Of a DNA stretch of 64,000 nucleotides, positions 306-6,507 are shown in pieces. The DNA lies in assembly GCA_964535955.1 (NCBI GenBank), contig CAZHVK010000006.1, forward strand, positions 1 through 64,000, read 5' to 3'. A program made the translations under genes and the position numbers. Numbering within the stretch: position 1 is the first letter of the stretch; each line of letters opens with the position of its first letter. The DNA is from an uncultured Methanosarcinales archaeon (GTDB taxonomy: Archaea > Nanobdellota > Nanobdellia > Woesearchaeales > CAXGTL01). The notes beneath the pieces are model-generated. The model did no database searches and was not told where the DNA came from. It worked only from the letters and a program-made list of their open reading frames with translations.

Positions 306-707
306 ATGACATTAGCAGATCAATTAAGAGAATATGATAGTAAAACATCATTTATTGATCCTGAGATAGAAGTACCTGGTGAATTACTTAGTAGAATAAC
401 TGGGTTTGTACAAGATATTTATGAACAACGTGTTTATGCAATAATTAGTGATGGAGAGAATTCTATGCCGCGAAGATTTGAATTATCTGATTTTAAAAGA
501 TATAATCTTGCTAATGTTGGGCAAAATTTTGAGATATTGTTTTATATGGTAGAAAAAGATACAAAAGATATTAAACAAGGTATTAATATTCAGATGAAGC
601 CCTTAGGAGATTATGAAAATAGAACTAGAAAAGAATTAAGTCCTGATCTAGATATGTCTATTTTTAAAGGCAGAAAACCTAATAGAGGAAAAAAGTTAGA
701 AGATTAG
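306..707 (+). CDS. Hypothetical protein
   Basis: 133-aa ORF with an AT-rich TATA-like element upstream; no recognisable motif. Confidence 0.6.
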   Translation: MTLADQLREYDSKTSFIDPEIEVPGELLSRITGFVQDIYEQRVYAIISDGENSMPRRFELSDFKRYNLANVGQNFEILFYMVEKDTKDIKQGINIQMKPLGDYENRTRKELSPDLDMSIFKGRKPNRGKKLED

Positions 708-797
708 ATAGTTCCATTGACAAAAGGTTTATATATAGATTCTACATAAATTAATGTAATCAATTCAATATAGTTAACATATGTCGGTGAAAAGATA

Positions 798-1868
798 ATG
801 GAAAAAAAGAGGCTACAATCTATTGTAATTTTTATTTTTAGTATTTATTTCTTTATAATTTCCATTGAATTAATCAAAAAAAGTTCTTTATCATTAGGAG
901 ATTCATTGATAAACCATTTTATAACATTAAGCCAGTCTCCAATAAAAGCATTAGCAGCAGGCTGGTTAGGTGCAGGCATTGTGCAAAGTGGTGGAGCAAT
1001 TGGAGCAATCACAGCAACAATGGTTGGTGCAGGCATATTTACATTGACAACAGCAATCTTTATCATATTTGGTTCTAGAATTGGAGCTACAATCACAGGA
1101 CTAATAGTTTCTTTATTTTCAAAAACAAAAAACAAAAGAGATTTTAGGCATGGTTTTGAGATTGCAACTGCAAACACTTTTTACAATATAATAAATATTA
1201 TCATACTTTTTCTGATTGAATATTTTTTTAGAATCTTTACAAAAATAGGAACATATTTTGGAAAATTTTTAGAAGGGGTTACTTTTTTTAAGGCAGTTCC
1301 TGACTTAATAGACATTATAGCAGGATGGTTTATTAAATTAATCATGCAAATACCTGCAAAAATTGCTGTTTTAATAATAGGATTTGTTATATTACTTGTT
1401 ACTTTAGAATTTTTAGCAAAATCAATTCTTGGAATATTTGGTGGACATGATAAAGCAAGAAAAATCGTTAAAAAACATTTTAGTAATAAATATGAAGCTT
1501 TTTTAATTGGTTTATTGATAACAGCATTAATACCCAGCACAAATATAACAATCAGTTTTTTAATACCATTAGCAGTTGCAAGAATCATCAATATAGAAGA
1601 GGCAATTCCTTACATATTAGGTGCAAACATTGGAACAGTGGTTGAAGTTGTGCTAGCTGCATTTGTTACAGGCAATTCGCTAGCAATTGCAACTGCTACA
1701 ATCTATGTATTGTTTAGTGTGATCGGCGCTCTAGTTTGGCTTCCTAATACTAAACTATTATACAAGATCACAAAATATATGTCAAAACATCTACTAAATA
1801 TTACAAGAGAAAAAGCAATAATATATGTTATGATATTTATCTTTATTCCTTTGATGCTTCTCTTCTGA
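798..1868 (+). CDS. Na+/phosphate cotransporter (NptA/PiT-II, Na_Pi_cotrans family)
   Basis: Polytopic membrane protein with two repeats, IVQSGGA...IFGSRIGAT and LIPSTNI...ILGANIGT, resembling the QSSS/GANIGT signature. Confidence 0.8.
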   Translation: MEKKRLQSIVIFIFSIYFFIISIELIKKSSLSLGDSLINHFITLSQSPIKALAAGWLGAGIVQSGGAIGAITATMVGAGIFTLTTAIFIIFGSRIGATITGLIVSLFSKTKNKRDFRHGFEIATANTFYNIINIIILFLIEYFFRIFTKIGTYFGKFLEGVTFFKAVPDLIDIIAGWFIKLIMQIPAKIAVLIIGFVILLVTLEFLAKSILGIFGGHDKARKIVKKHFSNKYEAFLIGLLITALIPSTNITISFLIPLAVARIINIEEAIPYILGANIGTVVEVVLAAFVTGNSLAIATATIYVLFSVIGALVWLPNTKLLYKITKYMSKHLLNITREKAIIYVMIFIFIPLMLLF

Positions 1869-4764: not shown

Positions 4765-5508
4765 ATGAAATTAAATTTATCAAAAATAAATCTAAGTAGA
4801 AATGATTTAAAGAGAAATTTAAAATTTCCAAGATTAATAAATGAAAAACTTGCAGAAGATATAGGCATAATGATAGGTGATGGACATATAAGTAAAAAAA
4901 TCAGACTCAAAAAAGCAGTTGATTATCCTATTTATATATCTGGTAATGCTGTAACTGATAGAGATTATGTTATTAATCACATAAAAAAATTAAAAAAGGA
5001 ATTATTTAACCTTAATTTTCCAATATTTTTTAGACGTAAAAATGAAATTTGTACTAAATTAAATTCAAAAGGATTAGTTGAATTTTATACTAAAATAATT
5101 GGGTTGCCTCTTGGCAAAAAAACAAATATCAAAATACCATTAATAATATGGCATGATTTGAAACTTATAAAAGCTTGTTTAAGAGGAATTGTTGATACAG
5201 ATTTCTCTTTTGTTATTAGAAAAAATAATTATCCTCATTTAAAATTAAAAACACAAAGCAGAAATTTAGTAGAGGATTGTAAAAAAGCATTTAAGTTAAT
5301 AGGAATTGAAACAAGCATAAAACTTGATGTTGAAGAGTATAATCCTAGAACTAGAAAAACATATATTACTAATTATTTATACTTAAGTGGACACAAAAAA
5401 GTAATGAAATTTATTAAAGAAATAAATTTTAGTAATCAGAGAAATTTAATAAAAGCAAAAAAATATATATGGGCCCGCAGGGATTTGAACCCAGGACCTT
5501 CCGGTTAA
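4765..5508 (+). CDS. Free-standing two-motif LAGLIDADG homing-endonuclease-like protein
   Basis: LAEDIGIMIGDGHI and CLRGIVDTDFS motifs. The 3' end overlaps tRNA-Lys antisense. Confidence 0.85.
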   Translation: MKLNLSKINLSRNDLKRNLKFPRLINEKLAEDIGIMIGDGHISKKIRLKKAVDYPIYISGNAVTDRDYVINHIKKLKKELFNLNFPIFFRRKNEICTKLNSKGLVEFYTKIIGLPLGKKTNIKIPLIIWHDLKLIKACLRGIVDTDFSFVIRKNNYPHLKLKTQSRNLVEDCKKAFKLIGIETSIKLDVEEYNPRTRKTYITNYLYLSGHKKVMKFIKEINFSNQRNLIKAKKYIWARRDLNPGPSG

Positions 5509-5565
5509 GAGCTTCATCCTTTTCTAAGAAAAGTCGGATGCTATACCAGATTAAGCTACGAGCCC
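5470..5565 (-). tRNA. tRNA-Lys(CTT) with a 22-nt intron at 30/31 (5513-5534)
   Basis: GGGCTCG/CGGGCCC acceptor. The BHB-type motif CATC-CG^A...GATG-AA^G restores the TCCGG/CCGGA stem and the CT CTT AA loop. Confidence 0.9.
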
Positions 5566-5568
5566 ATA

Positions 5569-5860
5569 CGCCGCAGCCCGGACTTTCATTCCACCTAGAT
5601 TTCTAAAGTGAATTTTGAACCGGGATACAACCAAAATCAATGGTTTTGGTGTACAATTAAATCCTGGCTTTGACGCCGACGCCCGGATTTGAACCGGGAT
5701 ATCCATAAGGAAACGAGATGACTGAAAATGTTCCAGTCTCGCGCAGTACCAGGTTGTGCCACGTCGGCTTTGTTGACAGGATTTAATTTGTATCCGTGAG
5801 GAAACGAGATACCTAGGAAACTTTCCAGTCTCGCGCAGTACCAGGTTGTGCCACTGCGGC
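5569..5860 (-). tRNA. Outer tRNA-Ser(GGA), interrupted three times: 12-nt 37/38 intron (5811-5822), ~165-nt insertion at the variable-arm/T-stem junction (5626-5790) containing another tRNA, and 31-nt T-loop intron (5583-5613)
   Basis: GCCGCAG/CTGCGGC acceptor plus G discriminator; CGAGA-CT GGA-TCTCG anticodon arm; CCCGG/CCGGG T-stem. BHB motifs are present at the anticodon and T-loop introns. Confidence 0.8.
5674..5768 (-). tRNA. Inner tRNA-Ser(GGA) with an 11-nt 37/38 intron (5720-5730), nested in the outer tRNA-Ser
   Basis: Complete cloverleaf: GCCGACG/CGTCGGC acceptor, long variable arm TCC-TTAT-GGA, CCCGG-TTCAAAT-CCGGG. BHB helix CTGG/TCAG. Confidence 0.92.
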
Positions 5861-5889
5861 ATATGTATATATAATGATTATTCATTCTA

Positions 5890-5897
5890 TTTATAAA
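5890..5897 (-). promoter_or_regulatory. TATA box of the Ser/Ser/Lys tRNA transcript
   Basis: TTTATAAA about 30 nt upstream of the outer tRNA-Ser 5' end. The outer Ser and Lys genes are separated by only 3 nt. Confidence 0.6.
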
Positions 5898-5979
5898 GAT
5901 TATTGAATTTATATCTAATTTTCATAAAAAACTTTATATAGTTTGAATACATATGATAATATATTGGGGGTTGATATAT

Positions 5980-6252
5980 ATGCCAGAAGAAGAACAAGCT
6001 AATAAAAAACAAATAGGTAAAATAACACACTTTTTTGACAAAATAAGTGTTGCTGTTATTGAATTGACAGATGCATTAAAAGTTGGTGAAAAGATATTAA
6101 TAGAAGGTCATGGTAATAGTGTTGAGCAGACTGTTGATTCTATGCAGATAGAGCATGAGAAAGTTGAACAAGCTGCTGCTGGTCAAAGTATTGGTATGAA
6201 GACTGTTCAACCTGTTAAGGTTAATGATCTTGTGTTTAAGGTTAGTGAATAG
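5980..6252 (+). CDS. Small translation-factor domain-II-like beta-barrel protein
   Basis: IGKITHFFDKISVAVIEL...LKVGEKI...VDSMQIEHEKVEQAAAGQSIG resembles EF-Tu domain II and the U32 C-terminal barrel. Confidence 0.75.
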   Translation: MPEEEQANKKQIGKITHFFDKISVAVIELTDALKVGEKILIEGHGNSVEQTVDSMQIEHEKVEQAAAGQSIGMKTVQPVKVNDLVFKVSE

Positions 6253-6264
6253 AGGCGAGTAAAG

Positions 6265-6507
6265 ATGATAGAATATGATACATTAGGAAATCTTATTAAT
6301 CTATATTATAAAAAACAAGATAGACCAAAAAAACATAGGGTAGATATACTAAGTTCAGTCCAAGCTAGATATATAAATCCAACTAGCTGTCTTCCAAGAA
6401 CAAGACTTGAAATAGATGAAACAAGAAATAGAGGAAATATATTTGAGATCTTGGCAAAATCAGACCACCAACCTTATCCAATAGTAGAAGAAGATCCCAA
6501 AAAATAA
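6265..6507 (+). CDS. Hypothetical protein
   Basis: 80-aa ORF preceded by a GAGG RBS-like sequence. Confidence 0.45.
   Translation: MIEYDTLGNLINLYYKKQDRPKKHRVDILSSVQARYINPTSCLPRTRLEIDETRNRGNIFEILAKSDHQPYPIVEEDPKK

Follow-up and report, generated by a model that had tools for sequence, protein, structure and literature searches.

A tRNA-Ser gene nested within an interrupted tRNA-Ser gene at a TA-duplicating palindromic element in Woesearchaeales

Introduction

Archaeal tRNA genes can carry several BHB introns at non-canonical sites, as described for Thermoproteales and ARMAN (PMC4090602, PMC4033280), and a box C/D guide RNA in an archaeal tRNA-Trp intron has been termed a unique functional unit in a tRNA intron (PMC4090602). 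Split tRNA genes of Nanoarchaeum, Caldivirga, Aeropyrum and Staphylothermus have their own promoters and a BHB at the join (PMC3218864), and integrative elements use a tRNA gene as an attachment site that is restored on integration (PMC4090602, PMC4033280). Among bacterial and archaeal MITEs with TA ends, RUP and RPE are shorter than 200 bp, A+T-rich and mostly intergenic, RPE also occurring in RNA genes (PMC2229807). REP TT dimers carry a tetranucleotide tag inside, and some of them are inserted in palindromes (PMC3733652).

The locus described here comes from an uncultured archaeon of the Woesearchaeales. A complete tRNA-Ser(GGA) gene (inner) lies in a 165-bp insert that interrupts a second tRNA-Ser(GGA) gene (outer), henceforth referred to as a nest and its shell. 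The introns of the locus at 37/38, 59/60 and 30/31, in a genome rich in such introns, are like those of archaeal multi-intron tRNAs, whereas the 165-bp insert differs in having no BHB, in being flanked by a duplicated TA and in being a member of a dispersed repeat. As in the tRNA-Trp intron, a second functional RNA is found within a tRNA gene; in that case, however, the cargo is a guide RNA and the host is spliced at a canonical BHB, whereas the nest has a whole-tRNA cargo and a host that is probably not matured. The nest resembles split tRNAs in having two halves held by complementary flanks, but lacks a BHB at the join, and no partners encoded elsewhere were found for orphan halves. It resembles integrative elements in that an interrupted tRNA gene is rescued by element-borne sequence, and is unlike them in having no integrase, only 2 bp duplicated, a whole gene inside and both old halves outside.

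The inserted element itself is similar to RUP and RPE in being under 200 bp, non-coding, A+T-rich and mostly intergenic, with inverted ends and a TA duplication. It departs from these elements in its two hairpins round GTAC, its whole-tRNA cargo at a hairpin tip, the lack of any partner transposase found, and copies that share grammar and A-rich arms more than sequence. With REP TT dimers it has in common two inverted small hairpins, a four-base tag at the foot and insertion into other palindromes. It differs in that the tag GTAC is common to both units (0 occurrences of GTAC in PMC3733652), that TA is duplicated and that no linked Y1 was seen. The nest combines known kinds, namely a TA-duplicating palindromic element and tRNA rescue, and by the features tested it is neither a BHB-intron nor a split-tRNA gene. 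Neither a tRNA gene inside a tRNA gene nor the repeat found here was described in the open-licence PMC and bioRxiv literature searched; SPLITS-survey or algal disrupted-tRNA papers published elsewhere might hold a related case. The nest is real and recurrent, and as a gene architecture it is apparently unpublished; the GTAC-centred palindromic repeat family is apparently undescribed.

Results

Architecture of the nested locus

The window (the whole stretch of DNA analysed, 64,000 nucleotides) is contig C6 of genome G000, a 1.49-Mb archaeal genome of ~30% GC. The nest locus comes after EF-2, EF-1alpha and S10 on the minus strand, gene names being read from translations. In genome G025 a plain tRNA-Ser(GGA) directly follows S10, so the nest locus looks like the native Ser(GGA) site. 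A first-pass annotation had proposed a layout of outer halves, insert, inner tRNA, clamp, second hairpin and introns on the minus strand, and all of these parts were recovered in place, as listed below by contig position.

5890..5897, minus strand: TATA-like box (TTTATAAA), ~30 nt upstream of the outer 5' end, seen in sequence
5823..5860, minus strand: outer tRNA-Ser(GGA) exon 1, with acceptor 5' strand GCCGCAG, D arm and anticodon up to position 37
5811..5822, minus strand: outer 37/38 intron, 12 nt, BHB, central helix 4/4 pairs
5791..5810, minus strand: outer exon 2, anticodon stem 3' strand and variable arm, the last bases being the left TA copy (5792-5791)
5626..5790, no strand assigned: twin-hairpin insert, 165 bp including one TA copy, same grammar as intergenic repeats
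5777..5788, minus strand: P2 left arm of the 12-bp clamp, pairing with the right arm at 5655..5666
5674..5768, minus strand: inner complete tRNA-Ser(GGA), acceptor GCCGACG/CGTCGGC
5720..5730, minus strand: inner 37/38 intron, 11 nt, BHB, 4/4 pairs
5655..5666, minus strand: P2 right arm of the 12-bp clamp, pairing with the left arm at 5777..5788
5651..5654, no strand assigned: central GTAC, common to both inverted units of the element
5630..5650, minus strand: hairpin P3, the second hairpin of the insert
5626..5627, minus strand: right TA copy, the target duplication (uninterrupted Ser genes read GGA-TA-TCC)
5614..5625, minus strand: outer exon 3, position 48 and T arm up to position 59
5583..5613, minus strand: outer 59/60 T-loop intron, 31 nt, strict BHB with 4/4 Watson-Crick pairs and both flanking helices
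5569..5582, minus strand: outer exon 4, T stem 3' strand, acceptor 3' strand CTGCGGC and discriminator G
5470..5565, minus strand: tRNA-Lys(CTT), 3 nt downstream of the outer copy, with a 22-nt HBh' intron at 30/31 (5534-5513)

On the minus strand the outer 5' part occupies 5860-5791 in total and the outer 3' part 5625-5569. From 5790 to 5626 the insert reads CA, hairpin P2 with the inner tRNA, GTAC, hairpin P3, TG and TA. No promoter-like site other than the TATA-like box at 5890..5897 was seen for the Ser-Ser-Lys unit, and this box is a putative promoter by the archaeal promoter consensus. All of the small introns (12, 11, 31 and 22 nt) passed the BHB test with a 4-pair central helix and a flanking helix, including the 30/31 intron of tRNA-Lys(CTT) with 4/4 central pairs.

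After in-silico splicing, the outer and inner copies were each identified by ARAGORN as an 84-nt tRNA-Ser(GGA), in agreement with the earlier proposal that both descend from functional tRNAs; an ARAGORN run with a lowered threshold gave noise. For the outer copy this entailed removal of 5626-5790 together with the introns, an operation suggested in the first-pass annotation, and the recovery of a valid tRNA-Ser(GGA) from it is equally expected from a TA-duplicating insertion. The spliced forms differ at 6 positions, 4 in the acceptor stem (two compensated pairs) and 2 in the variable loop. Another anticodon for the outer copy was rejected, as both introns place GGA. The 293-nt RNA folds with z = -5.45, and 0 of 200 shuffles were equally stable.

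Genome-wide scans for tRNA-Ser ends identified the inner gene (5674..5768) as the sole uninterrupted Ser(GGA) found in G000. Ser(TGA) and Ser(GCT) sit at other loci, and no Ser(CGA) was seen in the same scans. A requirement for the outer copy to fill a codon gap was rejected, because the inner copy carries the same anticodon. Most tRNA genes of G000 have introns at non-canonical places, and only one catalytic subunit gene for EndA was found, on contig C2 and encoding 214 aa, with 3iey_A as the closest solved relative (E 2.5e-35). This gene and an RNase Z-like gene are arranged head to head with 7 bp between them (L297 189-1788). Two further tRNA loci of G000 have unusual structures: a tRNA-Ser(TGA) that begins at a contig end (L052, contig C8 72235-72434) has four apparent introns, at 29/30, 37/38, the V/T junction and 59/60, and a tRNA-Leu(TAG) at ~91962-92190 of contig C2 is followed by a second copy of its 3' end with a T-loop intron. 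Within the window, a 247-aa ORF at 4765-5508 on the plus strand, with a LAGLIDADG_3 domain (E 5.8e-08), is convergent with the tRNA unit and overlaps the tRNA-Lys 3' end by ~39 nt.

Nested copies of one gene could be produced by misassembly of a repeat. The outer and inner copies do share a 32-nt exact repeat, at which contig breaks fall, and no single piece spanning the whole nest was present among the contig pieces listed for four public DNA runs (two studies, with the source sample possibly among them). These pieces nevertheless cover both junctions without a differing letter, which bears out the earlier argument against an assembly duplicate. In runs X1 and X3 the contigs extend over 5000-5762 and in X2 over 5021-5762, again with no differing letter, an X4 contig holds 5736-5854, and all four runs hold 5825-6400. 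A joint skipping the insert was likewise absent among the contig pieces listed. Furthermore, the clamp and TA grammar cannot arise by mis-join, and 12 more complete nests have other sequences. An artefact is considered extremely improbable, the occurrence of the same layout in other families being stronger support for the nest than the contig pieces.

Splice-motif analysis of the insert

The insert had been interpreted in the first-pass annotation as an intron of the outer tRNA with a relaxed BHB at the middle junction. Neither proposal was supported. The three registers at the G000 junction had 3 (one of them Watson-Crick), 1 and 2 pairs in the central helix, and their flanking helices measured 0-1 bp, so that the 165-bp insert falls short of a BHB in both the central and the flanking helices. 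A two-step removal of sub-units also fails to yield a BHB at this junction, and the nest failed the test for halves joined by a leader/trailer BHB as in split tRNAs. Across 15 junctions and 46 registers, only 6 registers reached 4 pairs, solely with bases borrowed from the P3 stem, and no 4-pair register had an intron-side helix (h') of at least 2 bp; no BHB or HBh' was present in any register, and the insert is instead a copy of a dispersed TA-duplicating repeat. The other three Ser introns at the nest locus scored 4/4 as controls. Among 17 control T-loop introns in G000, for which the exon helix was fixed by the search rule, 12 had 4 Watson-Crick pairs, 4 had three and 1 had two. True HBh' introns are present at the same V/T site in the Ser(TGA) of G000 and G002; the lineage is therefore able to splice there, and the insert offers no such motif. 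A 7-bp helix, GGATACA/TGTATCC, previously thought to compete at this junction, had a pairing probability of ~0 in the computed ensemble, where the V and T stems persist.

These data bear on whether the outer copy could be alive, matured or used by a non-BHB route, such that one transcript would give two (in G005, three) nested serine tRNAs. On the whole this is unlikely. It would be improbable, first, that both tRNAs are made, with the insert leaving the RNA at the two TA copies by a non-BHB route, either through a very relaxed EndA or through a double-strand cut that leaves 2-nt overhangs and is then ligated; the element would in that case be a self-removing insertion with the inner tRNA as intron cargo. 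Such a scheme is compatible with the intact outer copy of G000 and its two valid BHB introns, with 11 of 14 shells having paired acceptors distinct from the inner ones, with a junction grammar conserved across families while arm sequences covary, and with a lineage that splices many odd positions. The conserved grammar is, however, accounted for by the repeat family, the 46 registers lack BHB and HBh' motifs, neither a sole-copy tRNA nor an ORF needing removal of the element was ever seen to contain it, and the homologous junction has decayed in G195.

Alternatively, once RNase P and Z have released the inner tRNA, the outer copy might be used with the element in place, as a two-piece tRNA held by the clamp, bearing two extra variable-region arms and charged by SerRS. 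With the inner tRNA reduced to a short loop and the BHB introns removed, the V and T stems persist at pair probabilities of 0.8-1.0, and a cloverleaf with extra arms reaches -51.7 kcal/mol vs an MFE of -57.0 kcal/mol. Palindromic elements are also contained in the tmRNA and RNase P RNA genes of Rickettsia, as reported in PMC2229807. This arrangement is given a slim chance, given that acceptor pairs 4-7 have a probability of ~0.27 in the computed ensemble, that tolerated elements would be predicted in sole-copy Ser genes where none was found, and that 9 of 14 shells are damaged.

The insert belongs to a twin-hairpin repeat family

Every junction displays the grammar TA-C-R-(hairpin P2)-GTAC-(hairpin P3)-TG-TA, and uninterrupted genes have a single TA in GGA-TA-TCC. 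The TA on both sides, vs the single TA of uninterrupted Ser genes at the V/T and D-loop sites compared, constitutes a target-site duplication. The ends, CA.../...TG, form terminal inverted repeats with imperfect A-rich arms. The two units, left and right, are reverse complements of each other, so that the element has the same reading on either strand, a symmetry that a BHB does not have. Empty elements are 47-62 bp in length (~55 bp) and non-coding, with A-rich arms. Since the clamp arms share the A-rich start of empty-element hairpins, the inner tRNA sits at a hairpin tip, separated from the clamp by a spacer of 0-12 nt on each side. Two outer copies carry the same unit at GG-TA within the D loop, and the D-loop pattern was found in 4 of 401 genomes, one match lying in a tRNA, which is an outer half.

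Being short, non-coding, multi-copy, dispersed in relatives and flanked by a TA duplication, with terminal inverted repeats, the element shares these properties with MITEs. The GTAG/GGAG/CGTC tag of REP/REPIN sequences is absent (the tag is GTAC), as is a linked Y1 (RAYT) at 6 loci. Although dispersed in relatives, the element is single-copy in G000 (1 of 1905 GTAC sites). The pattern of one arm occurs in 23 of 201 order genomes, G044 having 56 matches, G188 17 and G071 9, compared with 3 control matches overall. The unpublished G134 is counted among the 23, as are a few genomes whose matches arose by chance and lack a hairpin. Complete empty elements numbered 24 in the loci examined. Of these, 21 are not in tRNA genes, and the other 3 occupy Ser shells or fragments adjoining an intact copy; the census tRNA flag caught one of the 3, L088 and L187 being classed by eye. 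Removal of the element restored an ORF of at least 60 codons on both sides in 0 of the 24 cases. No empty element was found in a sole-copy Ser gene among 401 genomes and 98 metagenome matches. An intact tRNA-Ser lies inside or adjoins all real V/T junctions (5 of 401 genomes, 8 of 98 metagenome matches and at least 6 among 120 matches listed); the inner copy at L132 was collapsed by assembly, and the full form is seen in L235.

Several further arrangements were noted. In G044, G071 and G188 (L328-L334) and in G027 (L281-L294) the twin-hairpin unit often lies inside larger multi-copy palindromic repeats, giving branched hairpin nests of 150-250 bp. At L309 1475-1529 and at L327 (G214) the element occupies GG-TA-GC at the 3' end of two ORFs, to which Pfam assigned no family and whose ends we presume to resemble diversity-generating-retroelement targets. 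Upstream of the gene at L120, L088, L351, L381 and L383 are hairpin cassettes in tandem, in which the first 12-16 nt of tRNA-Ser are copied again.

Y1 and IS630-type transposases were each found in 3 of 5 genomes searched, with no match to either in G000. No unit was found within ~1.5 kb of 11 transposase loci, the IS630 ends found were unlike the element, and none of 6 Y1 loci (6 examined of 11 Y1 places) carried a unit. No link of Y1 or IS630 to the element appeared in the 5 genomes searched.

Recurrence of nests in other genomes

A DNA search of 41 genomes, 39 of which gave some match, revealed nests in other families, so the expectation that relatives share the nesting was borne out. In total, 13 complete nests comprising 14 shells were identified in Woesearchaeales genomes and metagenomes, with anticodons GGA, TGA, CGA and GCT and one triple nest; the counts are lower bounds, because exact patterns miss variants and assemblers collapse nests (L132 vs L235), and any count or comparison with L215 in it may rest on unpublished data, the L215 letters being identical to a match in the unpublished G370. 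The nest loci are G000, G026, G005:C55 (triple), G336:C74, G081, G244, G398, L187, L205, L215, L235, L241 and L275. Inner and outer anticodons agree in 13 of 14 shells, the exception being G398, where the outer arm is destroyed.

Both shell ends were detected in ~2% of Woesearchaeales genomes (8 or so of 401). The tRNA search patterns were Ser-specific, apart from the D-loop pattern. The right-junction pattern occurred in 6 of 401 order genomes, 5 of them real. A left junction with a Ser gene after it was present in 13 of 401, including one chance match and one unpublished genome (G370), with 0 control matches. A metagenome scan gave 98 matches, 8 of them real. A scan of named genomes yielded at least 6 real cases among 120 matches listed; 10 of the 120 passed a stricter motif, and most were chance. 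All 14 pattern matches in viral contigs proved not to be real, leaving no viral carriers. G192 (right junction), G125 (left junction), L080, L093, L164 and L167 were dropped as chance matches.

L132 is the assembly-collapsed form of the L235 nest and appears as a tRNA with a mismatched acceptor; its contig may also be misbinned. The triple nest (L031, G005:C55, 319-892) consists of tRNA-Ser(TGA) copies with three different paired acceptor stems, and its outermost element holds the cargo in the second hairpin rather than the first. A second nest type was seen at L030 (G011:C40, ~500-955, minus strand), where the T loop of a Ser(TGA) with a paired acceptor holds another, complete Ser(TGA), and the junction has no BHB by hand count. 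The left clamp arm of L002 (G003) is closer to that of L351 (G081, another family, Ser(GCT)) than to that of the congener G000, a likeness hinting at independent insertions or transfer.

Condition of the outer shells

The first-pass annotation had held that decay of the outer halves in relatives would indicate a disrupted pseudogene, and such decay is present. Further defects are present in 9 of 14 shells, while 5 of 14, including G000, look clean. The defects consist of acceptor mismatches (G336, L235, L275), a T-stem mismatch (G081), a non-BHB T-loop insert (G244), loss of the D and anticodon arms with the outer acceptor strands still complementary (G398), a second element in the D loop (L187), and an anticodon intron helix of 2/4 pairs (G026 and the outermost shell of G005). 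In G195, a congener of G398, the homologous junction lacks the GTAC and TGTA motifs. Only the 5' half remains in G003 (same genus as G000), G027:C114 and G336:C4, and only the 3' half in L172 and L032. Searches with exact patterns found no partner halves for the orphans in G003, G027, G336 or G005, genomes that are 78-92% complete (G003 91%, G027 78%, G336 92%). A candidate trans-splicing partner at G336:C72 was rejected, being a complete Ser(CGA) gene. The shell at G027:C66 is packed with palindromes, and G002, a congener of G000, has one plain gene. At L007 (G005:C10, ~1470-1840) an intact Ser(GGA) is followed by two more 3' halves, each behind a twin-hairpin junction; no 5' halves matching them were found. 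Upstream at the same locus is an odd tRNA-like stretch with an AGA triplet.

It had also been suggested that selection acts on both copies. Outer acceptors are fully paired in 11 of 14 shells (Watson-Crick in 9, with G-U in 2; 3 have a mismatch), and the outer and inner acceptor 5' strands differ in 14 of 14; both observations count against the outer gene being dead. Pairing is no proof of function, however, since the strands are complementary in G398 despite its destroyed middle. L215 and L235, apparent homologues, differ in three anticodon-stem pairs while their outer acceptors are one base apart, a degree of acceptor conservation that would fit selection on the shell.

The shell could conceivably have a non-coding role, in which the outer acceptor and clamp would block mispairing of the outer 5' half with the inner tRNA, or it could be reversible, the outer gene being restored in part of the population when the element is lost precisely between its TA copies. 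Even taken jointly, the two variants are unlikely. Retention would fit the complementarity of the G398 acceptor strands, and collapse between the two 5' repeats, which gives a mismatched acceptor (L132 vs L235), would stabilise the nest. Against it, the outer 3' half is gone in G003, G027 and G336:C4, and the contigs are unbroken across the right junction with no skipping joint among the pieces listed, although contigs drop rare variants.

Discussion

The most probable account is that the outer gene was inactivated by a MITE/REP-like insertion and that the inner gene, carried or captured at a hairpin tip, is the working tRNA. The outer copy is most likely a dead shell and not a gene spliced in a novel way. 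According to this interpretation, the outer copy would be the original tRNA-Ser(GGA) of the locus. Its DNA would have been interrupted by a miniature twin-hairpin element, ~55 bp in the empty state, which duplicates TA on insertion at this dinucleotide, presumably with the help of a mobilising enzyme. The insertion point in G000 would be the palindrome GGA-TA-TCC between the variable arm and the T arm, and one hairpin tip of the element holds a complete tRNA-Ser gene together with leader and trailer sequences of a few bases.

The first-pass annotation envisaged a single transcript yielding two tRNA-Ser and tRNA-Lys. Production of the inner tRNA and tRNA-Lys from it is probable, and maturation of the outer tRNA is unsupported, as there is no BHB at the insert ends. 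The transcript would begin at the outer promoter and continue to tRNA-Lys, judging from established archaeal tRNA biology. RNase P and RNase Z would presumably cut the inner tRNA free of the hairpin loop, and splicing would remove the BHB intron of this tRNA. The outer halves would form a shell that EndA cannot rejoin and that with time may gain mismatches and hairpins or lose a half.

It is proposed that inner and outer copies share an anticodon because only insertions bringing or capturing a same-codon replacement survive. Capture might take either of two routes: an element preloaded with a Ser allele could home to a gene of like sequence, or a break at the hairpin tip could be mended with a copy of an intact allele. 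Anticodon arms are shared within a nest and not between related nests (L215, L235), which points to conversion between copies.

Several observations count against the outer copy being a dead shell. The G000 outer copy has no defect apart from the insert, acceptors are preserved better than would be expected from simple decay, and many of the sites processed by the host EndA are non-canonical. In addition, the element is single-copy in G000, where neither Y1 nor IS630 transposases were matched, the outer copy can fold as a cloverleaf with extra arms, and no tRNA-loaded element was seen outside a tRNA-Ser shell in the loci examined. Should the outer tRNA be matured after all, the locus would represent a new RNA-processing reaction and the first tRNA hosted in another expressed tRNA.

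The nests carry a warning for genome annotation, since assemblers collapse them into false mismatched tRNAs, as at L132. They also provide a concrete path along which split or permuted tRNA genes could originate. If the outer gene was indeed killed by the insertion, the nest would represent a new mode of occupying an essential gene, in which a tiny selfish element breaks the gene and supplies the whole replacement in its own hairpin.
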